Origin: Chiloscyllium plagiosum
Lineage: Eukaryota
Assembly: GCF_004010195.1 (NCBI RefSeq)
Contig: NC_057718.1
Span: forward strand, 88,268,876-88,308,132
DNA length: 39,257 nt
Direction of reading: 5' to 3'
This document shows, one piece after another, positions 7,345 through 36,627 of this stretch (the stretch's first letter is position 1; each line of letters starts with the position of its first letter). The translations under genes were made by a program, and so were the position numbers. Below the pieces are notes generated by a model, which searched no databases, had not been told where the DNA came from, and saw only the letters and a program-made list of their open reading frames with translations.

Positions 7345-7510
7345 TGAAGCACACTAGCTTTTGGAGCGACGCTCCTGATGAACTACCACCTGATGAAGGA
7401 GTGTCGCTCTGAAAGCTAGAGTGCTCCCAATTAAACCTGTTGGACTATAACCTGGTGTTGTGTGATTTTTAACTTTGTGCACCCCAGTCCAACACTGGTA
7501 TCTCCAAATC
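7345..7510 (+). mobile_element. Short Penelope-like terminal repeat (family B) with inverted 5' piece and hammerhead motif
   Basis: 7349-7380 is a partial reverse complement of 7390-7425. Shares cctgttggactataacctggtg..gtgatttttaa with 12949-12982. Confidence 0.75.
7390..7418 (+). ncRNA. Minimal type I hammerhead ribozyme motif (PLE family B)
   Basis: CTGATGA-A-GGAGT gtc GCTCT-GAAAG-CTA: core intact, stem II present, palindromic loopless stem III (AGCT), weak stem I. Confidence 0.65.
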
Positions 7511-7549
7511 AAAACTAAATGTCCATCTTCTGCTCCTGTTTCTTATGGT

Positions 7550-7720
7550 CTAATTGGTTAGTTATCCCATTGTAGTTTGCGGGAGCTAGGTGTGCGCAAA
7601 CTGGCTGCTGCGATTTCTCCATTCCAACAGTGATTACACTTCAAAAGTACTTCATTAGCTGCATAGTGCTTTGGGACATCTGCCATGAGATTGCTATATA
7701 AGCAGAAGCCTGTTCTTCTT
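7550..7720 (+). mobile_element. Deu-domain SINE 3' part
   Basis: gtttgcgggagct..gtgtgcgcaaactggctgc...acagtgattacacttcaaaagtacttcattagctg...gctttgggacatc...gctatataa. Confidence 0.75.
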
Positions 7721-7805
7721 AAAAAAAACAAATCAACAAGAAAGGGAAGAATATCAAATTATTTGTTCTGTTAATGTTGCAGGAGTTGAACCTTCAGTTC
7801 AGAGT

Positions 7806-10363
7806 ATTGTAAGAATAATAGGGTGGGGATTTTAACTTTCCAAACATAGATCAGGGCTACTACAGTGTTAAGGGTTTAGATGGAGAGGAATTTGTAAAAT
7901 GTGTACAAGAACATTTTCTGTTTCAGTATGTGGATGTACCTACTAGAGAAGGTGCAAAACTTGACCTCCTCTCGGGAAATAAGGCAAGGCAGGTGATTGA
8001 GATGTCAGTGGAGTACCACTTTGGGGCCAGCGACCATAATTCTATTGGTTTTAAAATAGTGATGGAAAAGCATAGACTGGATCTAAAAGTTGAAGTTCTA
8101 AATTGGAGGAATGCTAATTTTGATGGTATTAGGCAAGAACTTGCAAAAGCTGATTTGGGTCAGATGTTCGCAGGTAAAGGGATGGCTGAAAAATGGGAAG
8201 CCTTCACAAAAGAGGTAACGAGAGTCCAGAGACAATATATTCCTGTTAGTGAAAGGAAAGGCTGGTATTTGTGGGGAATGCTGGATGACTAGAGAAACTG
8301 AGGTTTTGGTTAAGAAAAAGAAGGAAGCAGATGCCAGGTATAGACAGGAGAGACCAAGAGAATCCTTAGAGTATAATGGCAGTGGGAGTGTGCTCATGAT
8401 GGAAATCAGGAGGGCAAAAAGGGGACATGAGATAGCAAATAGAGTTAAGGAGATTCCCAAGGGTTTTTACAAATATATTAAGGACAAAAGGATAACTAGG
8501 GAGAGAATAGGGCTCCTCAAAGATCAGCAAGGCAGCCTTTGCTTGGAGCCGCAGGAGATCGGGGAAGATTATTTTGCATCAGTGTTTACGTTGGAAAGGG
8601 TGTGGAACATAAATAATTTGGGGAAATGGATGGTGATATCTTGGAAAAATGTCCATATTACAGAGGAGGAAGTGCTGGATGCCTTGAAAAGCATTAAGGT
8701 AGATACATTCCCAGGGCCTGATCAGGTGTACCCTAGAACTCTGGGTAGCGAGGGAAGTGATTGCTGGGCCTCTTGCTGAGATAATTGTATCATTGACAGT
8801 CGCAGGTGAGGTGCTGGAAGACTGGAGATTGGCTAATGTCATGCCACTGTTTAAGAAGGGTGGTAAGGACACCGCAGGAAACTATAGACCAGTGAGCCTG
8901 ATGTTTGTGGTGGGCAAGTTGTTGGAGGGAATCCTGAGGGACAGGGTTTGCACATATTTGGAAAGGCAAGGACTGATTAGGGATAGTCAACATGGCTTTG
9001 CGCGTGGGAAATCATGTCTCACAAACTTGATTGAGTTTTTTGAGGAAGTAACAAAGAAGATTGAGGGCAGAGCGGTGGACGTGCTCTATATGGAGTCAAG
9101 CATGTGGTGCTGGAAAAGCACAGCAAGTCAGGTGGCATCCGTGGAGCAGGAGAATTGACGTTTTGGGCAAAAGCCCTTCTTCAGGAATAGCGTGATCTAT
9201 ATGGACTTCAGTAAGGCATTGGACAAGGTTCCCTATAGGGGACTGGTTAGCAAAGTTAGATCTCATGGAATACAGGGAGAACTGGCCATTTGGATACAGA
9301 ACTGGCTCAAAGGTAGAATACAGAGGGTGCTGGTGGTGGAGGGTTGTTTTTCAGACTGGAGGCCTGTAACCAGTGAAGTGCCACAAGGGTCAGTGCTGGG
9401 TCCACTACTTCATGTCATTTATATAAATGATTTGGATGTGAACATAGGAGGGGTTGTTAGTAATTTTCCAGTTCAAACCAAAATTGGAGGTGTAGTAGAC
9501 AGCGAAGAAGGTTCCCTCATATTACAGCGGGATCGTGATCAGATGGGCCAGTGGACTGAGAAGTGGCAGATGGAGTTTAATTCAGATAAATGTGAGGTGC
9601 TGCATTTTGGAAAAACAAATCTGAACAGGATCTCTACGCTTGACGGTAAGGTCCTAGGGAGTGTTGCTGAGCAAAGAAACCTAGGAGTGCATGTTCATAG
9701 CGCCTTGAAAGTGGAGTTGCAGGTAGATAGGATAGTGAAGAAGGTAATGATATGCTTTCCTTTATTGGTCAGAGTATTGAGTACAGGAATTGGGAGGTCA
9801 TGTTGCAGCTATACAGAGCATTGGTTAGGCCACTTTTGGAATATTGCATGCAATTCTGGTCTCCTTCCTATTGGAAAGATGTCTTCCTATTGGAAAGATG
9901 TTGTGAAACTTGAAAGGGTTCAGAAAAGATTAACAAGGATGTTGCCATGGTTAGAGGATTTGAGCTACAGGGAGGGGCTGAATAGGCTGGGGCTGTTTTC
10001 CCTGGAGCGTTGGAGGCTGAAGGGTGACCTTTTATAGGCTTATAAAATCATGAGGGGCATGGATAGGATAAATAGACAAAGTCTTTTCCCTGGGGTGGGG
10101 GAGACCAGAACTAGAGGGCATAGTTTTAGGTGAGTTATAAAAAGGGACCTGAGCGTGTTGTGTGTATGAAATGAGCTGCCAGAGGAACTGGTGAAGGCTA
10201 GTACAACTGCAACATTTAAATCTGCATGTGTAAATGAATAGGAAGCGTTTAGATGGATATGGGCCAAGTGCTGGCAAATGGGACTAGATTAGTTTAGGAT
10301 ATCTGTTCGGCATGGACGAGTTGGACCGAGGGGTCTGCTTTTGTGCTGTACATCTCTATAACT
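7806..10363 (+). mobile_element. 5'-truncated CR1 LINE (same young family), from the end of APE through RT to the 3' UTR
   Basis: GDFNFPNID, NYRPVSL, DFSKALDKVP, VPQGSVLGPLL. 3' end ggcatggacgagttggaccga..ctgtacatctctataact. Confidence 0.93.
9095..9190 (-). mobile_element. 96-bp solo PLE terminal fragment (family A) inserted in CR1 RT, with 15-bp TSD
   Basis: Flanked by cgtgctctatatgga (9080-9094) and cgtgatctatatgga (9191-9205). Homologous to 22137-22230. Hammerhead at 9157-9184 (-) carries GAAA>AAAA. Confidence 0.85.
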
Positions 10364-11759
10364 GACGTGCCTGTGCACCTTTTTCCCTATGAATAACGCA
10401 GGCCAAAACATTCTTATTGTTCTCTGGATTAACCAGTGTTCATCTGTCTTGTTTTTGTAGATTTTCTTTCTTCCCATTGATTTCCTCAATTTACAAAAGT
10501 AAATAATTAACGTGCAAGAGTTTTCAAATGCACAAAAGCTGATATTTTTTTTCTGGAAAATTTTTTTTGGAACAATGTCATTCTACTTCTGTCTCTTTTG
10601 ACTTGTCAATTCTACTTTGGAATTCATTGTCAAGAATACTTTTAAAATAATTGAGAGATTAAAATCAAGATGCTCAGAACGCCAGGATTGAGCACAAAGA
10701 ACTCTGAATACTGTGGGACCAAGCAGGTTACATAAATAAGGATTAGGGAGAGTGTGAAGGGGTTTGACCGTGAAAATGAGACATTGCTGAATTGAGAGCC
10801 AACGAATGGTAGCAAGGTTGGGGGTGATGGGAATGAATTAGGATTCAGGCAGAAAAAGGAACTTGATGACAGATATTCGCAATTTACTGAGGAGTGAACA
10901 GCTGCATGATCCACTCGAGTGCAAGTTCAGCAGAGAGCTGATCCATTTTCCTACGGCATTTCCTTTTATTAATGGTCTCAAGCATCCAGTGTGTGGAGTT
11001 ACAATTGCTGTTTCCTTCCTTTTGCACATAATGAGCTTTCTTTCCAAGAACGGATCTGATTTACAATGACTGTACTGGCTGAGGAGGATATGTCGCAGTG
11101 CACAAACTAACTGTGATAAGGATGGCACATTGAGTAGAATCCATCTAATTCCATAAAATTGTTGAGAAATTACTTTACTTCATCTAGCAAACTCGACCCA
11201 CCATGTGGTACTAGTTCAAAGTGAACAAGTTTGTCCTCATATTTAAGGTCTGTCTGTTGGTCTGTGCTGTGCAAGCACTGTGAATTAACCATGATGTTTG
11301 AGGTGCTGATTTAAATAGTGTTGTTGAAAAGCTATATAAAATATCTTAGTTTTCTGCTCTAATTTTTTTTAAGTGTTTCAGAATTTTCATCTTGCTGCTC
11401 CTTTCTCTTGCCTAAAATTGATAATTTATGCAGGACCCAAGTATGCGTGCTGCCAATTTTCAAGGGAGCCCAGCCATAGACATGTTCAGCATTCTCGGAA
11501 TTAGTAGATGGCAAAAGGATAAGAATGAGATATGTGGACTGGAAAGGAAATCCTACTTTTGGAAGGAAACTGAATGGAATCTTGTTTCGAGCAACATGTG
11601 TCGGTCATCTAAGCAAGCCAAACTGAGTTGAAATTTAAACAGTTAAAAATCACGCAACACCAGGTTATAGTCCAACAAGTTTATTTGGAAGCTCTAGCTT
11701 TCGGAACGCTACTCCTTCAGGTGGTTGTGGAGTATAAGATCTTAAGACACAGAATTTAT

Positions 11760-12060
11760 AGCAAAAGTTTATAGTGTGATTTAACTGAAATTGTTTTGAA
11801 AAAGCCCTGGATTGTTTAAGTCTCATCTTTTAGAATGAGCGTGTTGTTTCAGTTCTTTCATATGTAAATCACAGAACTTTAAAGTTACATTCTCAAGTGA
11901 ACTTTAACAAAGCAAAAGTTTATAGTGTGATTTAACTGAAATTGTTTTGAAAAAGCCCTGGATTGTTTAAGTCTCATCTTTTAGAATGAGCGTGTTGGTT
12001 TCAGTTCTTTCATATGTAAATCACAGAACTTTAAAGTTACATTCTCAAGTGAACTTTAAC
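11760..12060. repeat. About 151-bp direct tandem duplication
   Basis: 11760-11910 and 11911-12060 are identical apart from about two single-base indels. Confidence 0.93.
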
Positions 12061-12244
12061 GATTGATGTCATGTCAGCCCAGATGATGCATTTAAGGTGT
12101 GAGGTACCCTGTGTGAAGCTGTCTGTGCCACAGTGTTCAGACTGATTCTAATCTAAAAATGGATTTGCGGAATCTTACATGGATTTGTGCTGTTTTTGAA
12201 CAAAATAAAATGTAATTCTGCAAGTACAAATTCACCCCACAAAC

Positions 12245-12246
<2 letters not shown>

Positions 12247-12286
<40 letters not shown>
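12247..12286. repeat. (TG)n microsatellite
   Basis: About 20 TG units within the fold-back element. Confidence 0.95.
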
Positions 12287-12287
<1 letters not shown>

Positions 12288-12904
12288 TGGGGGATGTTAT
12301 GAGTGTGTGAGAGAGAGTGTAAAGGGGTATAGGTCTGTGAGAGGGTGTGTGCGCTCGCCTGAGTGTGTGGGACTATGTGTGAGCATATGAGAGAGGGTCT
12401 GCGTGGGAATATGGGTCTCTAGGAATGTGTGTCTGTCTGTTGGGCAATGGGGTCACCTGTAGTGTGACATGAACAGACACCGACTGATGCACACTCACAG
12501 AAAGACACAGACACCCATGGTCCTACCTACCTACATACATACATACATACGCGCACACACACAAGTTTGTGGGGTGAATTTATACTTGCAGAATTACATT
12601 TCATTTTGCTCAAAAACTGCATGAATCCATGTAAGATTCTGCAAACCCGTTTCTTAGTTTAGAGTCAGTCTGAACATTGTGGCATAGGGCACCTCACACC
12701 TTAAATGCATTTTCAGGGCTGGCATGACACCAATTGTTAACGTTCACTTGAGAATGTAACTTTAAAGAAGTTCTGCGAATTACATATGAAAGAACTGAAA
12801 CCAACATGTTCATTCCAGGTCTTTTTCAATATGATTTCAGTTATATCACACTGTAAAGGTTTGCTATAAATTTTGAGTCTTATGATCTTGTATTTCACAA
12901 CCAT

Positions 12905-12933
12905 CTGATGAAGGAGCAGCGCTCTGAAAGTTA
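12905..12933 (+). ncRNA. Minimal hammerhead ribozyme motif (PLE family B)
   Basis: cat-CTGATGA-A-GGAGC agc GCTCT-GAAAG-TTA-gtg: core intact, 5-bp stem II, 3-bp stem I. Confidence 0.65.
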
Positions 12934-13029
12934 GTGCTTGCAAATAAACCTGTTGGACTATAACCTGGTGTGTGATTTTTAATTCCGATATCTAGAACTT
13001 AATTTCTTTTGTTTTGAACACTTAGCTTC

Positions 13030-14354: not shown

Positions 14355-14376
14355 TGTGTGTGTGTGTGTGTGTGTG
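14355..14376. repeat. (TG)n microsatellite
   Basis: About 11 TG units directly upstream of a SINE fragment. Confidence 0.9.
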
Positions 14377-14380
14377 TATA

Positions 14381-14536
14381 TTGCCCACAGTGTGCAGGGA
14401 TGTATAGGTTAGGTGCATTAGTCAGGAATAAATTATAGGGTAGGGGAATGGGTCTGAGTGGGTTACTCTTTGCAGGGTTGGTGTGGCCTTGTTGGGATGA
14501 CGGACCTGTTTACATACTATAGGGATTCCAATTCTA
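14381..14536 (+). mobile_element. 5'-truncated HE1 SINE
   Basis: ttgccc.cagtg..ttaggtgcattagtcagg..gggaatgggtctg.gtgggttactctt...agggattc matches the 3' halves of the 4755 and 31262 copies. Confidence 0.8.
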
Positions 14537-14539
14537 AAG

Positions 14540-15640
14540 AAATTTGAACTAATTGAAGAAGTGCAACATTGGTTTATTGAGGTTGGGTCATGTCTTACAT
14601 ATTTAACTTTTTTTTGAGGCTGTACCTAAAATATAGAGGAGGAAATAATCATGGCTATAGTTTGTATGCAATTCTGAAGGTGTTTGAGAACATTCTGCAT
14701 AACAGAATGTTAAATTAGGTTGAGGATTGTAAACAGGAAATTAGGAATAAAATGTACAAATACCCAAACTGGAAGAAAGTAATTGGTGGTGTCTCACAAG
14801 GATATGTCCTGGAGCTTCAACTCATCAATGTTTTCATTAATGATTTGAAATTGTATATCCAAGATTGTAATGACATAGAATAGACAGGAACAGTAAAATA
14901 ATTAAGCATTTTAATAGATTAAGTGAATGGGTAATAAACCCGCAATAAATGAATTTGAACACCCAGTGTGAGGTGTCCATTTTGAATTAAAAAGGTTAAA
15001 TAGTGTCGATCTAAGAACAGTGGTGAGCCAGAATGATTTAGGAGCTTATGTATACTAATCACAAAGACATAGAACAAAAACAGGAATTACTGCAGAAACT
15101 CAGCATGTTTGGCAGACTCTGCAGAGAAAGCAAAGTTAACTTTAACTGGATTCTGAAGAAGGGTCACTCAACTCTAACTCTACTTTCTCCATGCAGATCC
15201 TGCCAGACCTGCTGAGATTTTCCAGGATTATCTGTTCTGGTTTCAGATCTTCAGCATCTGCTGTTCTTCATTTTATTTTACTAAAATGTATAAGTTAGGC
15301 TCAAAGGATAATCCGAAAGGCTAATTGATGTTGGCCTTCATGACTACAAAGTGGAGGAAATTTTGCTGCAGCTTACAAAATCTTGGTTATACCACAACTG
15401 GACTAATATGTACTGTTGGTGAAATCGAGATAGGCTATTTAGGAGATAAATTAGAAAACCCCTCTACACAGAATGGCAGAATTGCAGAACGTACTCCATA
15501 AAATACAATATGGGCAACTCAATTATTAATTTTCGGCCCAAAATCAATAAGCTTTTCTCTAAAGAATATAAAACGATATAGATTCAAGACAGATGGAAGG
15601 AACTTAAGATAAAGATGAGCCATAATTTCAATAAATGGGC
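14540..15640 (+). mobile_element. Old fragmented CR1 RT to 3' region
   Basis: Degenerate GSCL..LTFFE, GVSQG.VL, FINDL, CEV.HF and KAN.MLAF motifs; interrupted by the PLE remnant at 15070-15280. Confidence 0.6.
15070..15280. mobile_element. Short inverted PLE terminal remnant (family C)
   Basis: 15072-15140 is the inverse of 15175-15240. Contains ttctgaagaagggtcact (hammerhead 5' half with the GAAA part deleted) and the tail cagcatctgc. Confidence 0.65.
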
Positions 15641-15717
15641 AGACTGATGACATTTGATTGCATACACAAATCTACATTTTGAATTTCTAGGTTGTCTAAT
15701 TGTGTCTTATTTTTCAG

Positions 15718-15857
15718 TGACTGAAGCAGGCTTTGGTGCTGATATTGGGATGGAGAAGTTCTTCAACATCAAGTGCAGAACATCAGGCCTTAAGCCTAAT
15801 GTGGTAGTGCTTGTGGCAACAATCCGTGCCTTGAAAATGCATGGTGGAGGCCCCAAT
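15718..15857 (+). CDS. MTHFD1L: MTHFD1L internal coding exon (140 nt): (V)[46 protein letters not shown]
   Basis: FTHFS signature [21 protein letters not shown]...[12 protein letters not shown]. Acceptor tttttcag at 15710-15717, donor gtgagt at 15858. Starts in phase 1, ends in phase 0. Confidence 0.95.
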
Positions 15858-16179
15858 GTGAGTAGATGGTGTACACATAGTAATGAGAATGCACCATTCT
15901 GCCCACGAGTCTTTTCTTCTATCCAGTCAGATCTATCTTCAACAGAAGGTTTCTTTTCCCATACATAGACATAGTCAAATAACCAAGACAAGATGCATTG
16001 AGCAGAAATTGATGTCTGGAGAAAGGAAGTAAAGCTTTAAATGTATTGTCATTCACTTAAGATGGTCAGAATATGTCTGTGAACTAGGAATCACCCAATG
16101 GCTCAGGTTCAATGGAGAAATAAGATAGAAATTTGTACCCAATAGTCCAGGGCTGTAATACATCATGATTAAGTGATTC

Positions 16180-18891: not shown

Positions 18892-19258
18892 GGGCACGGT
18901 GGCCCAGTGGTGGGCGGCACGGTGGCCCAGTGGTGGGCGGCACGGTGGCCCAGTGGTTAGCACAGCTGCCTCACAGCGCCGGAGACCCGGGTTCAATTCC
19001 CGCCATAGGCGACTGACTGTGTGGAGTTTGCACGTTCTCCCCGTGTCTGCGTGGGTTTCCTCCGGGTGTTCCGGTTTCCTCCCACAGTCCAAAGATGTGC
19101 AGGTCAGGTGAATTGGCCATGGGAAATTGCCCGTAGTGTTAGGTAAGGGGTAAATGTAGGGGTATGGGTGGGTTGCGCTTCGGCGGGGCGGTGTGGACTT
19201 GTTGGGCCGAAGGGCCTGTTTCCACACTGTAAGTGTAATCTAAATCTAAATCTAAATC
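18892..19258 (+). mobile_element. Young full-length HE1/V-SINE with triplicated 5' head
   Basis: A box TGGCCCAGTGG occurs three times, B box GGTTCAATTCC at 18990-19000, CpG-rich body, (aaatct)n tail at about 19237-19258. Confidence 0.93.
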
Positions 19259-22198
19259 CTAACATTCAAATGTCGTCTTCACCTCTTCCCTTCGATCGTA
19301 GAAAAGTAAAGGATAGAAATAACCTGTGAAGTCTAAGTGCGCTTTTTGGAAGAATAACCTGGTTAGTTTCATTGTCCTTTGTTTCTCATTTCTCTGCATC
19401 GGATTCTGGGTAATCCAAGATGGAGGATGGGAAAAATTTCTGGCTGTAAGAGCTGCACCTTTTTTGAGGTATTTTAGGTGTTGGAGGTGATTTCCTCGAA
19501 CTCCAGGAGCAGCAATAACTGTTTATATGCTGTTGCATTGTTTTGGAACTTTGGAGGAAAAAACAGTCAAAACAGAAGCACTTTTAAAAGGGAGAGGAAT
19601 AGACAAAGGAAGCACATGGTCAGGTCAGTGCGAGAGAGAGAGTGAAAGAAGCCCACATTGTTAACTGACACAGCAGTGGACCTGCACAGTTACTGCCTTT
19701 GCTCTTGAATTCATGTATTGCTGGACATCGGAGTGCATCTGGGAAAATTAACAGAGTGAAATTCACAACTAATCTTGGAGGAACCTGTTTGGGAGAGGTC
19801 ACAGCACAGAAACAGTGGATATTTTAAGCGTGGCCTTACAGTACATCTGCAGTAGTGAGTAGAGTGGGTTTTATGATTATATGTTTTATTGAGATGTCTC
19901 TTGATTAAACTTAAAATATAAGCCATAAGTATTAATTTAACCTGGAGCACTGTTTTGTAGAGGAATAAGTCAGTGCTATTTTCTGGGTCTGTAGATTGAA
20001 AGAAGCAAAAATGACCTTTAGTAGAGTGATATGCACTTCTTGTTGGATGTAGGAGTTTAGGGGGGGGGTTTGTGTTACTGACGATTATATCTACTATAAA
20101 TGCCATTGGTTGCAAACACTATCAGATCGAATGGATTGGTTGGAGCGACAGTGGTAATGAGGAATTTACAAGAGCAAGGGGATATGATGGAAGGCAGTTA
20201 TAGGAAGGGAGAAAAGTCGCAGATACAGTCACGTAGATGGGTTAACTCCAGGAAAGGTTAGAGAGGTAGGCAGGTAGTGCAGGAGTCTTCTGTGGCTATC
20301 CCCATTTCAAACAAGTAGGCTGTTTTGGAAAATGTAGGGGAGGATGGATTCTCAGGGGAGCGTAGCATGAACAGCCAAGTTTCTGGTATTGAGACTATTT
20401 CTAATGCGAAGAGGGGTACGTCAGGTTCCAAGAGATGGATTGTGTTTAGGGGACTGTCTAGTCCGAGGTACAGACAGACGTTTCTGTGGCCAGCTGCGAA
20501 GAATCGGAATGGTGTGTTGCTTTGCTGGTTCCAGGATCAAGGATGTCTCAGAGAGGGTGTACAATGCTCTCAAAGGGGAGAGGGGCCAGCAGAAAGGGAA
20601 AAAGTTGAGATTCTGAAGGGAGACTACAGAGTTATGCAAGAATTTAAAAAGGAGGTACTCAAGAGTAGTAATATCTGGATTACTCCCAGTGCTACGAGAT
20701 AGTGAGGGCAGGAATAGGAGAATAGAGCAGATGAATGCATGGCTGAGGAGCTGGTGTATGGGAGAAGAATTCACATTTTTAGATCATTGGAATCTCTTTT
20801 GGATAGAAGTGACCTCTACAAGAAGGACGGATTGCACCTAATTTGGAGGGGACTAATATATTGGCAGGGAGCTAGAGCTGCTCGGGAGGGTAAGTTTGGG
20901 GGTGGTGGGGGGGTAGATAATGAGGAAAGAGGTCAATCTGATACTGGTACAGTTGAGAACAAAGGTGAGTCAAACAGTCAGGGCAGACAGGGACAAAGCA
21001 GAGAACAAGGTAGGACTGCTAAATTAAACTGCATTTATTTCAATGCAAGAGGGCGAACAGGGAAGGCAGGTGAACTCGGGGCATGGTTAGGAACATGGGA
21101 CTGGGATATCATAGCAATTATAGAAACATGGCTCAGGAATGGGCGGGACTGGCAGCTTAATGTTCCTGGATACAAATGCTATAGGAAGGATAGAAAAGGA
21201 GGCAGGAGAGGAGGGGGAGTGTCGTTTTTGGTAAGGGACAGCATTACAGCTGTACTGAGGGAAGATATTCCCAGATATACACCCAGGGAAGTTATTTGGG
21301 TGGAACTGAGAAATAAGAAAGGGATGAACACCTTATTGGGATTGTATTAAAGATCCCCGAATAGTCAGAGGGAAATTGAGAAACAAATTTGTGAGGAGAT
21401 CTGTTATCTGTAAGAGGAATAGGGTGGTTATGGTAGGGGATTTTAACTTTCCAAACATAGACCAGGACTACTACAGTGTTAAGGGTTTAGATAGAGAGGA
21501 ATTCGTAAAGTGTGTGCAAGAACATTTTCTGATTCAGTATGTGGATGTACCGACTAGAGAAGGTGCAAAACCTGACCTACTCTTGGGAAATAAGGCAGGG
21601 CAGGTGACTCAGGTGTCAGTGGGGGAGCACTTTGGGGCCAGCGAACATAATTCTATTCGTTTTAAAATAGTGATGTAAAAGGATAAACTACATCTAAAAG
21701 TTGAAGTTCTAAATTGGGGAAAGGCTAATTTTGACAGTATTAAGCAAGAACTTTCAAAAGCTGATTGGGGGCAGATGTTCGCAGGTACAGGGATGGCTGG
21801 AAAATGGGAAGCCTTCAGAAATGAGATAATAAGAATCCAGAGACAGTATATTCCTGTCAGGGTGAAAGGGAAGGTTGGTAGGTATAGGGAATGCTGGATG
21901 ACTAAAGAAATTGAGGGTTTGGTTAAGAAAATGAATGAAGCATATGTCAGGTATAGACAGGATAGATTGAGTGAATCCTTAGAGTGTAAAGGCAGTAGGA
22001 GTATACTTAAGAGGGAAATCAGGAGGGCAAAAAGGAGAACATAGCATTGGCAAATAGAGTTTAGGAGAATTGAAAGGGTTTATCAAATACATTATGGACA
22101 AAAGGGTAACTAGGGAGAGAATAGGGCCCCTCGAAGGTCAAAAATGTGTTGCTGGAAAAGCGCAGCAGGTCAGGCAGCATCCAAGGAGCAGGAGAATC

Positions 22199-22226
22199 GA
22201 CGTTTCAGGTATAAGCCCTTCTTCAG
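22199..22226 (-). ncRNA. Minimal hammerhead ribozyme motif (PLE family A)
   Basis: attc-CTGAAGA-A-GGGC ttat ACCT-GAAAC-GTC-gatt: core intact, stem II partly mismatched. Confidence 0.6.
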
Positions 22227-22824
22227 GAATGAGGAAGGTGTGCCAAGCAGGCTAAGATAAAGGTAGGGAGGAGGAACTTGGGGGAGGGGCATTGGGAATG
22301 CGATAGGTAGAAGGAGGTTACGGTGAGGGTGATAGGCCGGAGAGGGGGTGGGGACGGAGAGGTCGGGAAGATGATTGCAGGTCAAGAAGGCAGTGCTGAG
22401 TCTGAGGGTTGAGACTGAGATAAGGTGGGAGGGTCGGGATTTGGAAATGAGGCAGCTGGAGAAATCTGCATTCATCCCTTGTGATTGGAGGGTTCCTAGG
22501 TGGAAGATGAGGCACTCTTCCTCCAGGCGTCGTATTGCCATGGTCTGGTGATAGAGGACGCCAAGGACCTGCATGTCCTTGGCGAAGTGGGAGGGGGAGT
22601 TAAAGTGTTCAGCCACGGGGCGGTTGGGTTGGTTGGTGCGGGTGTCCCAGAGGACCCAACCGTCCAGTGGCTGAGCACTTTAATTTCCCCTCCCACTCCG
22701 CCAAGGACATGCAGGTCCTTGGCCGCCTCCATCGCCAGACCATGGCAACACGGCACCTGGAGGAAGCGCACCTCATCTTCCGCCTAGGAACCCTCCAACC
22801 ACAAGGGATGAATGCNNNNTACCA

Positions 22825-22852
22825 CTGAAGAAGGGCTTATGCCCGAAACGTC
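22825..22852 (+). ncRNA. Minimal hammerhead ribozyme motif (PLE family A), best-preserved core
   Basis: CTGAAGA-A-GGGC ttat GCCC-GAAAC-GTC: perfect stem II, ACGT palindromic stem III, GUC cleavage triplet. Stem I is uncertain because of the adjacent N gap. Confidence 0.72.
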
Positions 22853-24639
22853 GATTCTCCTGCTCCTTGGATGCTGCCTGACCTGCTGCGCTTTTCCAGC
22901 AACATATTTTTCAGCTCTGATCTCCAGCATCTGCAGTCCTCACTTTCTCCCCCTCAAAGATCAGCAAGGCGGCCTTTGTGTGGAGAGGCAGGAGATGGGG
23001 GAGATACTAAACGAGTATTTTACATCAGTATTTACTGTGGGAAAAGGACATGGAAGATATAGAATGTAGGGAATAAGATGATGACATCTTGAAAAGTGAT
23101 AGCAGAGGAGGAAGTGCTGGATGTATTGAAATGCATAAAAGTGGATAAATCCCCAGGACCTGATCAGGTGGATCCTAGAACCCTGAGGGAAGCTAGAGAA
23201 GTGATTGCTGGGCCTCTTGTTGAGATATTTGTATCATCGATAGTCACAGGTGAGGTGCCTGAAGACTGGAGGTTGCCTAACATGGTGCCACTATTTAAGA
23301 AAGATGGTAACGACAAGCCAGGGGAACTATAGACCAGTGAGCCTGATGTCAGTGGTGGTCAACTTGTTGGAGGGAATACTGAGGGACAGAATGTACATGT
23401 ATTTGGAAAGACAAGGACTGATTAGGGATAGTCAACATGGCTTTGTGCGTGGGAAATCATGTCTCATAAACTTGATTGAGTTTTTTGAAGAAGTGACAGG
23501 ATTGATGAGGGCAGAGCGGTAGATGTGATCTATATGGACTTCAGTAAGGCGTTTGACAAGGTTCCCCATGGGAGACTGGTTCGCAAGGTTAGATCTAATG
23601 GAATGCAAGGAGAACTAGCCATTTAGATACAGAACTGGCTCAAAGGTAGATGACAGAGGGTGGTGGTGGAGCGTTATTTTTCAGACTGAAGGCCTGTGAC
23701 TAGTGGAGTGCTACGTGGATACTTTTCTTAATTTATATAAATGATTTGGATGTCAGCATAAGAGGTATAGTTGGTAAGTTTGCAGATGACGCCAAAATTG
23801 AAGGTGTAATGGACAGCGAAGAAGGTTAGTCCAGATTGCAAAGGGATCTTGACCAGATGGGCCAGTGGGCTGAGGAGTGGCAGATGGAGTTTAATTTAGA
23901 TAAATGTAAGGTGCTGCATTTTGGGAAAGCAAATCTTAGCAGGGGTTGTATACTTAATGGTAAGGTCCGAGGGAGTGTTGCTGAACAAAGCAACCTTGAA
24001 GTGTTGTTTCATAGCTCCTTGAAAGTGGAGTAGCAGCTAGTTAGGATAGTGAAGAAGGCGTTTGGTATGCTTTTCTTTATTGGTCAGAGTATTGAGTAAA
24101 GGAATTAGGAGGTGATGCTGTGGCCATACAGGACATTGGTTAGGCCACTTTTAGAATATTGCATGCAGTTCTGGTCTCCATCCTATTGGAAAGATGTTGT
24201 GGAACCTAAAGGATTCAGAAATGATTGACAAGGATGTTGCCAGGGTTGGAGGATTTGAGCTGTCGGGAGATGTTGAATAGGCTAGGGCTGCTTTCCCTGG
24301 AGCGTCGAGGCTGAGGAGTGACCTCAGAGAGGTTTATAAAATCATGAGGGACATGGATAGTATAAATAGACTTTCCCCTGAGGTGGGGGAGTGCTAAGGG
24401 GCAGCGTTTTCACCCAGAGGGTGGTATGTGTATGGAATGAGCTGCCAGAGGAAGTGGTGGAGGCTTGTACAATTGCAACATTTAAAAGGCATCTGGATGG
24501 GTATATGACGAGGAAGGGTTTAGAGTGATGTGGGCCAATTGCTGGCAGGTGGGACTAGATTGGGTTGGGATACCCGGTTGGCATGGACGAGTTGGGCCGA
24601 AGAGTCTGTTTCCAATATCTTTCATAAGCTTATAGTTAT

Positions 24640-25170
24640 ATCTGTATCTTGCACCCTTGCAAGCAGTAATTTCCAAATCTGAACTTTTCCTTAGTCACTT
24701 CTGGTACTTTTCCCTCCAGTACACTTCTAGCTAATGACTGACATCTATGTTCTCCTGTAATTCAGTCTTCAGGCATTGGAATCGGTTCCTCTTTATTTAT
24801 TTTATCCACATCCTTTACGATTTTAAATGTCTCTATGAAGTTTCCTCTTTGCTTCTCCTCAAAGGAGAGCCCCAACTTCACCAGTATATCCATAAGTGAG
24901 ATCTCTCATCCCTGGAACCATTCCAGTAAAAGGCTCCTGAGCTGTCTTCAAAATCAAAATCATAAAGTTCTTACTAAAATATAGTGTCCAGAGTTGCATT
25001 CAATATTCCAGTGAGGACCAAGCTAATGTTTTAAGTAGGTTTAGCACAGTATCTTGGGTTTTATACTTTCTGCGATCATTTATAAAGCCCGTGATTCCAC
25101 GTGTTATGTGTTAAACTCTCCTGCCACTATCAAAGATTTGTGCATAAATACCCCTGCCTCTCCCATATGT
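24640..25170 (-). mobile_element. Old CR1 3' region
   Basis: Reverse complement gives LVLTGILNATL/EY.MQLW-like sequence, gaatggttccagggatgaga and catagagacatttaaaatc, which resemble the CR1 C-terminus. Confidence 0.55.
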
Positions 25171-27085: not shown

Positions 27086-27659
27086 TTGAATAGAACATTG
27101 GTTAGGCTACTTTTGGAATATTGCATGCAATTCTGGTCTCCTTCCGATAGGAAGGATGTTGTGAAACTTGAAAAGATTCAAAATAGATTTACAAGGATGT
27201 TGCCAGGGTTGGAAGATTTGAGCTATAGGAAAAGGTTGAATGGGCTAGGGCTGTTTTCCCTGGAGTGTTGGAGGCTGAGGGGTGACCTTTATAGAGGTTT
27301 ATAAAGTCATGAGGAGCAAGGATAGGGTAAATAGACAAGATCTTTTCCCTGGGGTGGGGGAGTCCAGAACTAGAGAGCATTGGTTTAAGGTGAGAGGGGA
27401 AAGATATTTAAGAGACCTACAGAGCAGCTTTTTCACACAGAGGGTGGTGCATGTGTGGACTAGGCTGCCAGAGGAAGTGGTGGAGGCTGGTACAATTGCC
27501 ACATTTTAAAAGGCATTTGGATTGGTAGATGAACAGGAAGGGTTTGGAGGGATATGGGCCAGGTGATGGTAGTTGGGACTAGATTGGGTTGGGATATCTC
27601 GTCAGCATGGACATGCTGGAACCAAGGGTCTGTTTCCATGTTGTACATCTCTGACTCTA
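27086..27659 (+). mobile_element. 5'-truncated CR1 3' fragment (young family)
   Basis: RTLVRLLLEYCMQFWSP...FFTQRVVHVW.LPEEVVEAGTI; ends gtttccatgttgtacatctctgactctaa. Confidence 0.92.
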
Positions 27660-27949: not shown

Positions 27950-28790
27950 CAGAAGATATGGTGGGGGGGGTGGTTAAGGACTAAACAATAGGTGGAGATA
28001 GAGCCCAAAGAGAAGAACAGCTGGACAGACAAAGGAGTAGATAAGGATCTGGCTAGGAGGGTGAATACCTGTTATTGGAGATGGTTAATGGCTAACCATA
28101 GGTAGTATGTAATGACAGACAGCGATAACAAGGCCTGTTGAGTGGCATAGGGGGCTAGGACGTGGGAGAGTTCAGGCCCTAAAATTATTGAACTCTATAT
28201 TGAGTCCAGAGGGCTTCAGGGTTCCTAAGTGGAAAATTAATTGTTGTTCTTCCAACTTGCGCTGAGTTAACCTTTGCCACTTTAACACGCCACACTTTCT
28301 CCTGGCTAACATTTTTTGTCTCAGGCCTGCTATAGTGTTCCAGTGAAACTCCGCGCAAGCTGGAAGAGCACATAATTTTCTGCTTGGGCACCCGTCGGCT
28401 CTCCAGACTCAATATTGAGTTCAATAATTTTAGGGCCTGAACTCTCCCCATGACCTAGCCCCCTATCCCACATACCAGGCCTTGTTATCATATAGTCTGC
28501 TAGGTAGTACGCACTACCTATTCTTAGCTTTTAATGGAGACTGTTAATAGCTATTTACCCATATTTATCTGTACAACCGCTATTCTGTCTTTGGGCTCTA
28601 TCCCCACTTCTCATTTACTCCTAACCTCCTCCCTGGCATTTTCCTAGCTTCCATCAGTTCTGAGGAAGGCTCACTGGACATGAAATGTTAAGTCTGTTTT
28701 GTCTTCACAGATGCTGCCAGATGGGCTGAGCTTTTCCAGCAATTCTGCTTTTGTTTCTGATTTATAACATCCACAATTATTTGGCTTTTA
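27950..28790. mobile_element. Head-to-head PLE remnant (family C)
   Basis: 27960-28267 is the reverse complement of 28350-28635 (e.g. gggagagttcaggccctaaaattattgaactc versus gagttcaataattttagggcctgaactctccc). RKLEEHIIFCLGT..LNIEFNNF is the endonuclease end. Degenerate hammerhead at 28660-28689. Confidence 0.8.
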
Positions 28791-28850
28791 AAGAGGCTCT
28801 TGTTTGTCTGTCTTTCTTCTTCTCAACCTACCCACTTCGCAACACAATCC

Positions 28851-28934
28851 GCGGATACTGCCTGACCTGCTGTGCTTTTCCAGCACTGCACTCGCAACGC
28901 TAATCTCCAGCATCTGCAGTCCTCACTTTCGCCC
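28851..28934 (+). mobile_element. Solo PLE family A tail
   Basis: ggatactgcctgacctgctgtgcttttccagca..ctccagcatctgcagtcctcactttc matches 22869-22950. Confidence 0.8.
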
Positions 28935-29123: not shown

Positions 29124-29302
29124 GGAGAAAGGGAGAACTGCAGATGCTAGAGATCGGAGTTGAAAAGTGTAGCACTGGAAAAGCACATCAGGTCAGGCAA
29201 CATCCGAAGAGCAGGAAAATCACGTTTTGGACAAAAGCCCTTCATTAACCCTTCCTGATGCTGCCTGACCTGTGCTTTTTCAGCGTCACACTTTTGGACT
29301 CC
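29124..29302. mobile_element. Short inverted PLE family A remnant
   Basis: Minus-oriented tail plus partial hammerhead at 29124-29245, followed by plus-oriented gatgctgcctgacctgtgctttttcagc. Confidence 0.75.
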
Positions 29303-29789
29303 TATCTTCTGTATATCACTTAATATCCTTACTTAACAACAATGTGATCAATCTTAAACTCTGAAATTTTCAGTTCATCCCCACCAGCCCCAACCTCAGC
29401 AACTTTTTAATGGAGAGGGACCTAGAATATTAACATTGTTTGTGTAAAACAATGCATACACTTCCTTACGGCTGAGCTCTGAGTTTAAGGTTATGTCTGA
29501 TTATTTTGGACTCTCCACCAGACCAAATAATTTCTCTCTCTCTTTTTACCCTGTCAACTCCTTTAATCATTCATGACTATTTCTTCTGTATGGAAGAGAA
29601 TGGAAGCCTACTCTCGTGTTCCTGATCTCAACATTTTAAATCTTGTAGTCCAAGTTTCATTCAGGAGCTGTAGCTCGTCTCCAGATCTAATACCTTTTTA
29701 GCATTTAAAATTGATAATGGGTATGCATGAAGAAGAATTTAAGGTTCACTGTAAGAGTATTAGGTGTGTTGCTTGAGCAATTGAGGTAA

Positions 29790-30079: not shown

Positions 30080-30085
30080 GCATAG

Positions 30086-30263
30086 GACTGATACTGAAGC
30101 AGAGATTAATCTTGCCTGTCAAATTGCAAAATGCTCTGGAGCTTATGATGCTGTGCCATGCAATCACTGGTCCATTGGAGGCAGAGGGTCATTACAGCTG
30201 GCTGAGGCTGTCAGGCAGGCTGCAGATCAGAAGAGTAGCTTCAATTACCTTTATGACCTAAAG
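30086..30263 (+). CDS. MTHFD1L: MTHFD1L coding exon (178 nt): (K)TDTEAEINLACQIAKCSGAYDAVPCNHWSIGGRGSLQLAEAVRQAADQKSSFNYLYDLK
   Basis: Acceptor tctttctttgcatag, donor gtaaga at 30264. The first G completes the AA|G Lys codon from the previous exon. DAVPCxHWSxGGxGS is MTHFD1L-like. Confidence 0.94.
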
Positions 30264-30694
30264 GTAAGAACCTTTTCTTTTAAAACTTGTTCTCTATTTA
30301 GATAAGTGTCAAATGTTCCCCTATGAGATACAATGAATATAGTAGCCAAAGTAAGGGGTATGGTGGTAGGAAAACCACAGGCAAACTGCTGGCAATTGCC
30401 TGAAATGTATTTGCTGTACATCAGTAAGAATAAAACAAGACCTGCTTTCAACCTGCTATTTCAGGAAAGCACCGTGGAGTCACATTTGCAGGTATAAAGT
30501 AAACTTACAAAATTCTCATACATGCTGCAGATATCATAAGTTATCGATGTTAATGACTCTGCAGTACTAATGTGGAATTGAGTCACCAATAAGCCAAAAG
30601 TGCTAAGCATAACCATCACTGAACCCCTTGGGCTATGAAAGATAAATAGGAAGTGAAACTGTTAATAACATATGTAATCACAAGTAGACTGGAA

Positions 30695-31261: not shown

Positions 31262-31602
31262 GGGGCAGCACGGTGGCTCAGTGGTTAGCACTGCTCTCAC
31301 CGGGACCCAGGTTCGATTCCAGCCTTGGGCAACTGTGTTTAGAGTTTGCACGTTCTCCCTGTGTGTGCGTGGGTTTCCTCCGGATGCTCCAGTTTCCTCC
31401 CACAATCCAAAGATGTGCAGGTTAGGTGAATTGGCCATGCTAAATTGCCCCGTGGTGTTCAGGGATTTGTAGGTTAGATACATAGTCGGGGTAAATGTAG
31501 GGTAATAGGATAGGGGAATGGGTCTGGGTGGGTTATTCCTCCGGAGGGTCGGTGTGTACTTGGTGGGCCAAATGGCCTGTTTCCACACTGTAGGGATTCT
31601 AT
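31262..31602 (+). mobile_element. Full-length HE1/V-SINE
   Basis: A box TGGCTCAGTGG, B box GGTTCGATTCC, V core, and CR1-like 3' end ggcctgtttccacactgtagggattctat. Confidence 0.92.
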
Positions 31603-32009
31603 AAAAGGAAAATTTAAAAATCAGCAATCTGTTCTTCCATTATTTTATTTCACTCAGTCTCATTCCCAACTGGTTCATTCTGATTTGTTGCCAGAATGTT
31701 TCTTAATATGAAAGTAAGCTCTGACAAAGCTGAATGAAATATTTTCACATTTATTTAACCTTTCTTCCTGGGAAAACCATACAATCACTCAAAAAGACAG
31801 TAGGTGGAGCTTCAGTTAGAAAATTCAGCCCTGGGTCTCAGTAACAGGAAGGCTTTCATTCTTTTAGCACTTTTTTAGCCATGGCTGTAAAGATTTTTGT
31901 AACAATTGTGCACTTTTAAGGAGATAGTGACAATCTAACTATACAAGCTAGATTTAATCCAGGATGAAAGAGGCTGTGCTACAAACAAAGGAGTTAGCCA
32001 GTCCTTGTT

Positions 32010-32400
32010 TGACGTGTAGCAGTTGCCTCTGAATGAGAAAGCTATGGACTCAGATTTGAGCGCACAATCTGAGCTGTCACTCCTGAAAATGTACTACAAC
32101 AGTCTTAATGGATGGAGGTCACTATCTTTAGTATGAGACATTAAACTGAGGCTCTGAATGTTCTCAAATGACATTATTTGAAGAAAAGCAGAGAAGTTCT
32201 CCGAAGAAACCAACTCAATATCTATCCTTCACCCATCATCGTTAGAGGCAGTGCAATCTTTTTGTTACCTCTTGCTGTTTGTGGGGCCTTGCAGTGCATA
32301 AATTTCACAGTAATTACACTTCAAGTGATTGCATTGACACTACAGTGCTTTGGTACAAGCTAAGGTTGCAAGATAGCTATAGAAATACAAGTTTTTTTTT
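32010..32400 (+). mobile_element. Degenerate near-full-length Deu-domain SINE
   Basis: tgagcgcacaatct..gctgtcactcc..atgagacattaaactgagg..ttgctgtttgtggg..cagtaattacacttcaa..gctatagaaatacaagttttt. Confidence 0.7.
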
Positions 32401-34140
32401 TAAACGTAGAGGATCAGGCATGGGATTTTCTTTTTCCTTCCTCTGCTTTGATTTTAGTGCTTGAATATTTTCCTTGTATCTTGAGGACCAGAATGTGACC
32501 CAGCTTGATTCTAGTCTGGATAGAGGTATCTACAAAATGAACATAATTCCCTCTAGCTTGAGTCTATTTCTTTTCGTCTATAGTTTTTTCTGCATTTGAG
32601 CAGTCTTTAATAAATAGAACTTCCTAGTTTATTGGGTTTCCTCTGCAGGTTTGCTGCTGACCTAAGCCTTGACTCATTTGCTATTTTTTAAAGTTAAGAA
32701 ACCAAAGCAATCACCCCCTCCTCCCAAGAAAATGATAAAAAGGTTAAAAAATGTCAGTCCAAGCTCAGAAGAAGGCTTTTTTCATATTCCTGGAGTGAAA
32801 TTTTATGCTTTTCAGATACCTGAAAGTGAAAGTAATTATATGGATTTATGCAATAAAATGTAAGATTATTCACTTTATACGCAATCAGAAGTATCCCATC
32901 GGAACCTTCACAATACATGAATACAAATATTTTACCTTGTTATAATTCTTTTTAGGGCATCTTGAAATTTTCCTAACTAGTTGTATCAGGTCATATAAGA
33001 TATAATGAGTAAGTTAGATTTTAAAAGTGAACATCAATGGTGAATGAAAATACCATCATTTTTACGTTTAATGAACATTGAGTAGATAGACTGGAGAAGT
33101 ATGCAGTACTATGGCAGGTGAAATTTAACGTAGCAAAATGAATTGCACAGATTTAAAGTGCGTGTAGGATCAGAGATTTGTGGAGTTTACATACACAGTG
33201 CTTTGAAGGAGCTGAGACAAGTTGAGAAGATTGTTCTTATGAAAGGGTGCACATATGACCCATGCCATTGTTGGGTGAAACACTGTGCTCGGATGTGCAG
33301 TATTGGAGTGACGTTTGGTATGATTCTACTAAAGCAGGAGACCAGAAAAGCATAAGATATTGGAGCAGATATGGGACCAAAAACGCACACTCAATATTTC
33401 AAATGCAGTCTGACCGTAGCCTTATACAACCTCGGAAATATATCCATGCTCTTGTATTCTAGCCCTCTTGAAGTGAATGCCAACATTGCATTTGCCTTCC
33501 TAACTGTCAACTGAACCTGTATGTTAATCTTAAGAAAATCTTGAAGTAGGACTTCTAAGTCCCTTTGGACTTCAGATTTCTGAAGACTTTCCCTATTTAG
33601 AAAATAGTCAATGCTTCAATTCTTCATATCAAAGTGTGTAACCTTATGCTTGCCTACACTGTATTCCATGTGCTGCCACTTTGCCTATTCTCCTAGCCTT
33701 TCCAATTCCTTCTGTAGCCTCTCAGTCTTTAAAGTATAACATGAATAGTGGTAGTCCGAACACTGAGCCCTGCAGAACATCACTACTCACCAGCAACTGT
33801 CATGAAAAAGACCTTTCTACCCCCACCATCTGCTTCTGACAGTCAATCAGTCCTCTCTCCATTCCAGTACCTTACTCTGAACAGTATGGACTGCCTTAGC
33901 AGCCTCCTGTTCAGCACCTTATCAAACGGCCTTTTGGAAATCCAAACAGAGTCCGCTGGCTCCCCTTTGTCTAACTTGCTTGTTACTGTCTCAAAGAATT
34001 CTAACAGATTTGTCAGGCATGAACTCTCCTTGATGGAGCTGTACTGACTCAGTCCTATTTTACCATGCATATCCAAGTATTCTGCAATCCCATCCTTAAT
34101 AATGGACTCTCAAATCTTACCAGCAATCAAGGTCAGGCTA

Positions 34141-36627
34141 GACAAAGCAGGTGGCTAGAAGAACACAGCAAGCCAGGCAGCATCAGGAGGTGGAAAAATT
34201 GACGTTTTGGGTATAACCATTCCTCCTTCAGGACTGGGGGTGCGTGTAAGGAGAGCTGCAGATAAAGGGGGTGGCAGGGGCTGGATGGTGAAGTGGGGAT
34301 AAGTAAAGAAAGGCACAGGGTACGACCTGATTGGTCAATGGGAGGAAAAAATCTGGTAGGTGGCTGGGAGGAGTATAAGGGAGGGGGAGGAGCTGGAGAT
34401 GGGGTTGGGGAAGGGAGATTATTTGAAATTGGAGAACTCAAAGTTGAGTCCTCCAGGCTGTAGGCTGCCCAGGTGCAAGATGAAGTGTTGTTCCTCCAAT
34501 ATGCAGTTTGGTTCGTTGTGGCAATGGAGGAGGCCAGGATGGTCATGCCAGAAAGGGAATGGGAAGGGGAATTAAAATGGGTGGTGACTGGGTGTCTGGT
34601 TGTCCCCTGCAGGCCTGGCTGAGATGCTCAGCAAACTGCTCCCTAAGTTTGTCTCCCCAATGTAGAGAAGACCACATCGGGAGCACCTGAGAGAAGAGAG
34701 GCAGATGAGCCTCTGTCTCACCTGGGAGGACTGTTTGGGGCCCTGCATGGAGGTAAAGGGGGTGGTGTGCTGGCAGGTTTTTCATCTTTTCCAGTTGCAG
34801 GGGAAAGGTATCTGAGAGTTCGGGGGGGTTTGGTGGGGAGAGTGGCGCAACCAAGGACTGGCAAAGATAACGGTCCCTGCGGAAGATGTCTTTGGTTTTG
34901 GAGTCTAGTTGGAGTTTGCCAAAGTGTTTAAGGATCATACGTTGGATGTGGAGACTGGTGGGGTGTTAGGTGAGGACAAGGGGGACTGTCCCTTTTATAT
35001 TTGAAGGAGGGGAGCGTTTAGAGCAATGGAACGGGGATGGGGGTGGTGCAGTGGTGGGCTGTCTGGATGACTGGGGGAGTTGTAAAGCGCAATATTTGAA
35101 ATAGGTGAGCATCTGGGATGCTTGGGAGTGGAATGCCTCCTTTTCTGAGCAGATGTGGCGGAGGCAAAAGGAATTGGGAGAACGACATGGAGTTCTTGCA
35201 GGATACTGGGTGGAAGGTGGTATAATCCAGGTAGTTGAGAGTCTGTGGGTTTATAGTAAACGTGCGCCTGGAGACTGTCGCTGGAGATGCAAATGGAGGG
35301 GTCAAGAATGGGGAGGGAGGTGTCCAAGATTGACCAAATGAATTTGAGGGCAGGGTGGAAGTTGTGCACAAAGTCAATGAACTGCTCCAATTCAGCCTGA
35401 GTGGAGGGTGCTGCACTGATGCGGAAGAGTTGTGGCACAGTGCTGACACAGATACTGACATAGTTGACAAAGAGGCAGGCGTAGCTGGGCCCATCTGAGA
35501 GCCTATGGCCACCCCAAGGATTTGGAGGAAATGGGAGGAGTTAAAGGTTATTTTGGGGTTGAGGACCAGTTCAGCATGGCAGAGGAAGTATTGACAGAGG
35601 GAGACTGGATACTTCTGTTGGAGAGGAAGGAGCTGAAGGCCTGGAGGCCACCCTTAAATGGACGTGTTTATGGACTGCACATCCATAGTGAAGATAAAGC
35701 GCTGGGGAACTCTGCATCCAATGCATCGTCCATAAACACTTGCTCCCACTCGAAACAGACCCCACCTCTCTTTGCCTTCCCAAAGACTGTTCTCTTCACC
35801 AGTCTGAGGTTTGTGCCACTCTCCCCACCCACCCCCTGAACCCCCAGGTACCTTCCCCTGCAACTGGAAGAGATGCAAAACCTGCCAGCATCCCCCGTCC
35901 CTGTCCCCGCCCCACCGACCTCCATCCAGGGCCCCAAACAGTCCTTCCAAGTGAGACAGATGTTCACCTGCCTCTCTTCCAACCTAGTTTACCGTATCAG
36001 GTACACTCGATGTGATCTTCTCAACATCAGGGAGACAAAGCTTAAACTTGGGGAACAGTTTGCCAAGCGTCTCAGCTGGGCCTATCGGTACCCCCAGTAC
36101 CACCCACTTTAATTCCCCTTCCCACTCCCTTTCCGACATGACAATCCTTGGCCTCCTCTGTTGCCAATGTGTTGGAAGAACAACACCTCATCTTGCGCCT
36201 GGGCAGCCTGGAGAACTCAATATTGAGTTCTCCAATTTCAAATAACTTCCCTTCCCTTTCCCCTCTCCAGCTCCTCCCTCTCCATTCCACTCCTCCCAGC
36301 CACCCAGATTCCTTCCTCCCATTGACCAACCAGATCATACCCTCTATCTCCACCTATCCGCACTTCACCACCTTGCCCCCACCACCTCCTTTATCTTCAG
36401 CTCCCCTTAGACCCATCCCAAGTCCTGAAGAAGGGATACACCCCGAAACATTGACTTCTTCACCTCCTGATGCTGTCTGGCTTGGTCAACGTTTCTGGTG
36501 TAACCCTGCTTACGGGACTTGAGGTGGGTCTAAGGGGAGCTGCAGATAAAGGGGGTGGCTTGCTGTGTTTTCAGCATCTTTGTTGTCTACCTTGGATTCC
36601 AGCATCTGCAGTTTTTTTGTCTCTAAC
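34141..36627. mobile_element. 2.5-kb Penelope-like element (family D) with RT and GIY-YIG remnants, inverted arms and 13-bp TSD
   Basis: Minus arm 34141 to about 35710: FTMDVQSINTSI, VAIGSQMGP, FVHNFHPALKF, VYYKPTDS, YLDYT.FHP. Plus arm about 35711-36480: FTCLSSNLVYRIRYTRC..NIRET, HFNSPSHS, EEQHLILRLG. TSD caaggtcaggcta at 34128-34140 and 36628-36640. Confidence 0.9.
36425..36452 (+). ncRNA. Minimal hammerhead ribozyme motif (PLE family D)
   Basis: aagtc-CTGAAGA-A-GGG atacac CCC-GAAAC-ATT-gactt: perfect 5-bp stem I. Stem III has GTT>ATT, consistent with CpG decay. Confidence 0.62.

Follow-up and report, generated by a model that had tools for sequence, protein, structure and literature searches.

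Minimal hammerhead motifs in a shark gene: probable 5′-truncated insertions of two Penelope-like element lineages

Introduction

Penelope-like elements (PLEs) of metazoans carry minimal hammerhead ribozymes (min-HHRs) in their pseudo-long terminal repeats (pLTRs) (PMC4209133). That study describes one extra base as common to PLE minimal hammerheads in general, includes it in the consensus and cites a viroid precedent for it. Such motifs cleave weakly as dimers (PMC4209133), and one of nine Xenopus dimers was cut (bioRxiv 10.64898/2026.07.22.740005). The hammerhead of an anole PLE cuts only with protein, and the cut is unnecessary for insertion in vitro (PMC11167929). The function of PLE hammerheads is described as an open question (PMC8557442). 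Here we analyse a stretch of 39,257 nucleotides from Chiloscyllium plagiosum (NC_057718.1, positions 88,268,876 to 88,308,132; 'the window' below). An earlier note on this DNA had described four distinct repeat families, A to D, which share a minimal hammerhead with an extra A. Our data indicate that the repeats are probably 5′-truncated insertions of two PLE lineages that carry the published min-HHR.

Results

The motif corresponds to the published minimal hammerhead

The window was searched with a descriptor consisting of CTGANGA, zero or one extra base, stem II, GAAA and N-N-U-H, and 200 dinucleotide shuffles served as controls. With a stem II of at least 4 bp, three sites were found (7390, 12905 and 22825) against a shuffle mean of 0.015; with at least 3 bp there were four sites against a mean of 0.055. 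Of the three strict sites only 12905 adds a stem I of at least 3 bp, which makes its arm at 12533-12984 the sole window copy passing both thresholds. For the genome (3.56 Gb) we used a sample of 160 evenly spaced 10-kb stretches with 1,514,573 non-N bases. This sample holds 92 strict matches, and shuffles of its first 80 stretches average 0.1.

Exactly one base follows A9 in all 92 strict matches (A in 86, U in 6) and none has zero or two, confirming the proposal that the extra base is a conserved feature and not decay. The idea that the extra A is a new variant was ruled out, as it already stands in the 2014 consensus of PLE minimal hammerheads (PMC4209133). Stem III is loopless in all 92 matches. 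Its palindromic positions 15.2-16.2 read CG in 62 and GC in 17, the remainder being CpG-decayed, and the 10.1-11.1 pair is G-C in 71, G-U in 18 and another combination in 3. Judged by these sequence features, the motif is the published min-HHR of PLEs and no new variant. In the comparison with Rfam that the note had proposed, a scan of the window gave 11 matches at E≤10 with no curated hammerhead model among them, and the canonical type I form, with a looped stem III and loop-loop contacts, was not seen. Weak matches to U6, microRNA and small nucleolar RNA models scored under the gathering thresholds and were dropped.

Two lineages downstream of PLE protein remnants

In place of four distinct families we find two lineages. 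When a profile was built solely from what lies 3′ of the predicted cut, it retrieved copies of A, C and D alike (164 matches in the first 80 stretches), which rules out four unrelated repeat families and unites these three by a common tail (lineage A/C/D). B copies need a separate tail profile (49 matches in the same stretches). Over 237 residues, the reverse transcriptases (RTs) associated with A and with B share 33% identity; this notwithstanding, the core is the same in both lineages. Family B had also been assigned the triplets CUA and UUA, of which the UUA at 12905 is a one-copy change from the family's CUA. Two further types occur outside the window, namely E, and F, a relative of C. In E the extra base is U, stem II has 7 bp and the tail is unrelated to that of A or B (sampled stretches L176:1217-1260 and L114:6110-6153, both on the − strand, L181 and L160). 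Subfamily F was found at L200:1375-1415 (−) and in L140, L165 and L135.

The assignment to PLE terminal repeats made in the earlier note holds, since the A, B, C and D cores all lie 3′ of PLE protein remnants. A-type cores are located downstream of an RT frame on the same strand in about half of 30 RT-query loci, the others being partly hidden by gaps, and the A-linked frame matches RVT_1 with E=1e-7. The B core follows a long untranslated region (UTR) that is preceded by an RT, a CxxC linker and a GIY-YIG-type stretch; RVT_1 gives E=5e-6 for its RT frame, just under the cut-off. In the window, the D core is preceded by broken RT and endonuclease frames and the C core by an endonuclease C-terminus; for C, an independent copy has the same UTR. 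The CxxC linker and GIY-YIG-type motifs were seen in the translations, and the cysteine linker suggests the Neptune type (PMC3846280), an assignment made from the linker motif alone.

Inserted copies are dispersed and decay neutrally

The insertions include inverted 5′-truncated copies with a tail at one end and a target duplication. We counted 45 head-to-head pairs in A/C/D and 19 in B whose cores lie within 30 nt of each other, and no same-strand pairs at that distance. Same-strand pairs closer than 100 nt are absent among 331 A/C/D and 91 B copies, and two closer than 200 nt occur among the 331. The window contains no tandem hammerhead array. The cores of the earlier note exist, but its coordinates are too low for some minus-strand copies. 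It had also listed as separate copies what are the arm pairs of single head-to-head insertions (34231 and 36425, 22226 and 22825, 11720 and 12905), and its list lacked the stub at 29124-29321 and the tail at 28848-28933.

No window copy equals the consensus of its own family, and the majority are damaged (Table 1). The core at 7390, with its extra A at 7397 and its predicted cut after 7418, has a stem I of merely 1 bp and is predicted to be locked in a hairpin in read-through RNA. Because the window copies are damaged, far apart or hairpin-locked, they are likely dead. A B subfamily carries a 2-base insertion directly after the predicted cut (window 7419-7420; sampled stretches L034, L045, L046 and L050), and in six copies its GA form, as at 7390, leaves stem I at 1 bp. 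Within subfamilies, off-consensus cells amount to 10 of 543 at the core positions A13, A14, A15.1 and U16.1 and to 52 of 2293 at A/T positions of the tail. Core and tail decay equally fast, and inserted copies therefore do not appear to be protected; this comparison shows no selection on them. It is very improbable that the copies have been co-opted as active ribozymes that cut or regulate host pre-mRNA. Six cores do lie on the host sense strand and RNA reads of a related species cover the motif, but damage, neutral decay, the hairpin predicted at 7390 and the lack of same-strand pairs within 100 nt all argue against such a function.

Stems covary between subfamilies

Covariation was examined in eight hand-chosen, related subfamily representatives of the A/C/D lineage. 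B and E were excluded from the pair counts; a MAFFT alignment over all lineages misplaced them. Among the representatives 93% of 90 cells pair, compared to 20-42% in slid controls. Both sides change in 6 of 12 pairs, including 3 of the 4 stem I pairs, and the covariation score was reached by 0 of 500 shuffles. The covariation of the stems claimed earlier therefore holds between subfamilies, whereas inserted copies decay neutrally.

In subfamily F the C3-G8 pair is replaced by U3-A8, with 729 exact copies genome-wide. A search allowing either base gave 806 matches, the first 100 of which carry U3-A8 in 99 cases and C3-A8 in one, with no G8. On the sequences compared, this swap is the strongest single sign of covariation. 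U3-A8 is also described in minimal hammerheads of Schistosoma (PMC4209133), and a search of an open-access library found no report beyond Schistosoma. An apparent U3-A8 in the old lineage B was rejected: C7-G8 has undergone CpG decay there, and most of the first 100 of 529 matches retain C3. In A1b, the youngest subfamily (divergence 0.012), the third stem I pair is restored in 10 of 13 copies. Across subfamilies this pair runs from G-C in D and C through U.C and U.U mismatches in A3, A2 and A1 to U-A in the young A1b (sampled loci L067:169-208, L064:5456-5495 and L127:6872-6911). The series is a possible compensatory path through tolerated intermediates.

Copy starts pile up at stem I

To locate where copies begin, 5′ ends in the genome sample were mapped relative to C3 for 198 analysable of 233 A/C/D copies and 63 of 73 B copies. 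Ends at −9 to +2 were found in 90 of the 198 and 24 of the 63, a per-base rate 4.5-13 times (A/C/D) and 3-10 times (B) that of other intervals. High-scoring copies behave similarly (56 of 118 A/C/D and 14 of 37 B), and of 23 ends defined by a duplication, among 128 examined, 12 lie at −17 to 0. Subfamily F has a sharp end at the first A of stem I: about 89 of 100 copies keep this A and about 21 of 100 continue upstream (by eye). About four in five F copies start at, or just before, it. This A is invariant in all eight A/C/D representatives and is preceded by a pyrimidine. A pyrimidine before the start A is an initiator-like context. A cleavage footprint at +28 was considered and rejected, as there is no excess of ends at that point; four copies start exactly there, all of them head-to-head, and two of the four are accounted for by stem I self-pairing (by eye). 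Because 5′ ends pile up at stem I and not at the cut, most insertions seem to have been copied from uncut RNA starting at stem I. From its position, the pile-up probably marks the 5′ end of the RNA. In a related organism, RNA reads map to both strands and become about fourfold fewer upstream of the core, as do the genomic copies; the reads show no pile of starts or ends over the motif.

Alternatively, the pile-up might come from the reverse transcriptase stalling, or folding back at a hot spot, on a folded or protein-bound hammerhead, with no RNA start involved. We consider this a real possibility, though clearly short of an even chance. It would fit that the ends of A and B scatter across about 15 bases, that short self-complementary words at the core serve in many palindrome joints, and that the mark of a cap-derived G is absent. 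On the other hand, a structural block should halt copying 3′ of the fold and not past its last 5′ base. Solo copies flanked by target duplications also have their 5′ ends at the pile-up, and the F end is sharp at the one invariant A in its initiator-like context.

Abundance

Extrapolated from the sample, the genome contains about 2.0 × 10⁵ strict motifs (bootstrap 1.6-2.4 × 10⁵), of which about 8 × 10⁴ have a stem I of at least 3 bp. Tails, damaged copies included, number about 10⁶ per genome.

Features of the window

The features of the window are listed in Table 1. The two D-type arms form one unit that is flanked as a whole by a 13-bp target duplication, and an inverted UTR-hammerhead piece of the same D element (36485-36558, −) lies inside the tail of its right arm. 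The internal duplication in the B UTR (11760-12060) is head-to-tail with 99% identity and is either an assembly artefact or a recent event. A 4-base assembly gap (22816-22819) immediately precedes the 22825 core, and the UTR expected at that point is absent.

The whole window falls within a gene that encodes a formate-tetrahydrofolate ligase domain and has + strand exons before, within and after the window. The host introns are crowded with pieces of CR1-type long interspersed nuclear elements (LINEs), found on both strands at 2400-4700, 5100-6600, 7800-10400, 20000-24700, 27000-27650 and 37250-39200. Two lineage A insertions (9184; 22226/22825) are located inside such fragments. Another short interspersed repeat with a CR1-type 3′ end is present in four copies (4928-5018, 14442-14532, 19152-19242 and 31513-31603). 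A near-perfect 48-base hairpin at 37118-37165 gave a weak match to an Rfam microRNA model on both strands.

Table 1. Lineage A/C/D and B insertions and host exons in the window
Positions	Strand	Feature	C3 (strand)	Condition of core
7348..7510	+	Lineage B stub: short inverted remnant, sense arm with core 7390-7418, long tail	7390 (+)	Stem I 1 bp
9095..9195	−	Lineage A solo copy in CR1-type LINE; 10-bp target duplication	9184 (−)	G12 lost
11643..12436	−	Lineage B left arm: 3′ UTR with CA repeat, 151-bp internal duplication, short end	11720 (−)	Three core bases missing
12533..12984	+	Lineage B right arm, same insertion as 11643..12436; core 12905-12933	12905 (+)	
15073..15270	+	C-type head-to-head stub	15153 (+)	GAAA deleted
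15705..15860 (end approximate)	+	Host exon, formate-tetrahydrofolate ligase domain; window inside gene		
22137..22651	−	Lineage A left arm: end of endonuclease frame, 3′ UTR, short end	22226 (−)	Stem II weakened
22654..22950	+	Lineage A right arm, same insertion as 22137..22651: endonuclease fragment, 4-N gap, core 22825-22852, long tail	22825 (+)	Core intact; 5′ strand of stem I absent (4-N gap)
28124..28790	+	C-type element: inverted fragment 28124-28268, endonuclease C-terminus 28348-28431, UTR, tail	28660 (+)	Stem II broken
28848..28933	+	Lineage A tail without hammerhead		
29124..29321	−	Lineage A head-to-head stub		Damaged
30081..30266	+	Host exon, same gene		
34135..35707	−	D-type left arm: broken RT, thumb and endonuclease frames; UTR	34231 (−)	Substitutions or insertions
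35776..36625	+	D-type right arm, same insertion as 34135..35707: endonuclease remnant, UTR, interrupted tail	36425 (+); 36515 (−)	Substitutions or insertions in both

Discussion

We conclude, with a probability of roughly 0.8, that the repeats are 5′-truncated insertions of two PLE lineages with the published min-HHR, that the ribozyme likely cuts the RNA of active elements and that the window copies are likely dead. The ribozyme would work in the transcript of a master element, aided by a second copy or by the element's protein, and it is on these master elements that selection would act. Stem III, four self-complementary bases long, would need two copies to form. For most insertions uncut RNA would be the template, with its 5′ end probably at the first base of stem I. 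Copying from the tail may run off after about 90-120 bases, and the product would then be joined to the target, giving a solo copy, or folded back, giving a head-to-head copy.

Several observations weigh against this interpretation. There is no excess of 5′ ends at the predicted cut (0.0057 at +25 to +34 compared to 0.0055 at +13 to +24). No cap-derived G was seen at 5′ joints, where 7 non-consensus bases from 36 solo copies comprise 4 G and 3 A, which are small numbers, and by eye none was seen in subfamily F. The covariation count comes from eight chosen, related sequences in which kinship inflates it, and the 0 of 500 shuffles is no probability. With ViennaRNA the active dimer was never the lowest-energy fold of 14 representatives, which is a weak test for a non-canonical core. 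Pfam GIY-YIG reaches E=0.078 for A, below the cut-off, and has no match for B, and none of the 30 RT loci holds a full-length element that joins the tail to the reading frame. Finally, A1 and A2, the most abundant subfamilies, have only two stem I pairs adjoining the core, followed by a U.U mismatch, and selection on stem I therefore appears to be loose.

This weak stem I bears on the alternative that the fold is kept as a protein-binding, promoter or priming signal while catalysis, at least in those A subfamilies that are young and abundant, is a side effect or has been lost. A1 and A2 reached tens of thousands of copies with it (for A overall, the exact 35-letter pattern occurs 54,454 times in the genome). 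Uncut RNA as the source of most insertions points the same way, as do catalytic mutants of the anole element that still insert in vitro (PMC11167929) and Naiad PLEs, which thrive without hammerheads (PMC8557442). The swap to U3-A8, however, keeps a pair of the catalytic fold, in line with the C3G/G8C rescue in PMC11167929; the youngest subfamily, A1b, has restored its third stem I pair; and the same core persists in lineages with such divergent RTs. We thus regard this alternative as unlikely and return to a ribozyme that likely cuts the RNA of active elements. A more specific version of it is tentative and falls a little short of an even chance. The transcript would start at stem I, and the ribozyme would form the front end of a capped mRNA and trim a leader of about 33 nt. 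Most of the about 10⁶ copies would be run-off products, and the independent U3-A8 swap, together with the stem I pair lost and then recovered across dated subfamilies, would show that catalysis is selected, though insertion uses uncut RNA.

The finding is real yet mostly ordinary, as the motif type is already published and the window adds another host. No published study of shark PLE hammerheads was found in the open-access literature, a search that did not cover Lunse et al. (RNA Biol), Dfam or Repbase, and one chondrichthyan is included in the 2026 retrozyme preprint (bioRxiv 10.64898/2026.07.22.740005). It is plausible that the PLE ribozymes of sharks are uncharacterised so far. What could be useful is the scale, in strict motifs as well as tails, together with dated natural variants (weak stem I, restored stem I and U3-A8). 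These variants make the role of hammerheads in PLEs testable, and the genomic footprint suggests an RNA start. If the transcript does start at stem I, the subfamilies provide a natural set of variants with which the function of PLE hammerheads can be studied.

Compared to known systems, the motif agrees with the min-HHRs of metazoan PLE pLTRs (PMC4209133) in its CUGANGA core, the single unpaired base before G10.1, the G10.1-C11.1 pair, the loopless palindromic stem III, the short stem I and the U3-A8 variant known from Schistosoma. In both, a genome holds many consensus families, copies are mostly single and truncated, and opposite-strand pairs occur. In contrast, the host group differs, the supplement of that study having no shark row, and stem II here has 4-5 bp (7 bp in E). 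The count here also far exceeds the about 4,000 motifs of coelacanth and about 9,000 of Xenopus, which were obtained with another descriptor (PMC4209133); axolotl retrozymes number up to 120,000. A pile-up of 5′ ends such as that seen here is not described in the available part of that study.

With Neptune-type EN+ PLEs (PMC3846280, PMC8557442) the elements share an RT, a cysteine-rich linker with a putative GIY-YIG-type C-terminus, head-to-head arms of which just one carries the tail, and duplications of 10-16 bp, whereas no full-length partial tandem was recovered here. As in the anole Poseidon element PAc (PMC11167929), about 110-125 nt separate the hammerhead from two 3′ end points downstream of it, and uncut RNA is the main substrate. 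The reading frame of PAc starts in stem II. In the elements described here, by contrast, the frame that passes through the A2 motif ends inside the tail, and a search for the true 5′ junction did not find it. Non-LTR retrozymes (PMC7229834, bioRxiv 10.64898/2026.07.22.740005) form tandem arrays of mostly canonical motifs, unlike the dispersed, solo or head-to-head copies described here, but they have in common with them a type I hammerhead and a link to PLE terminal repeats.

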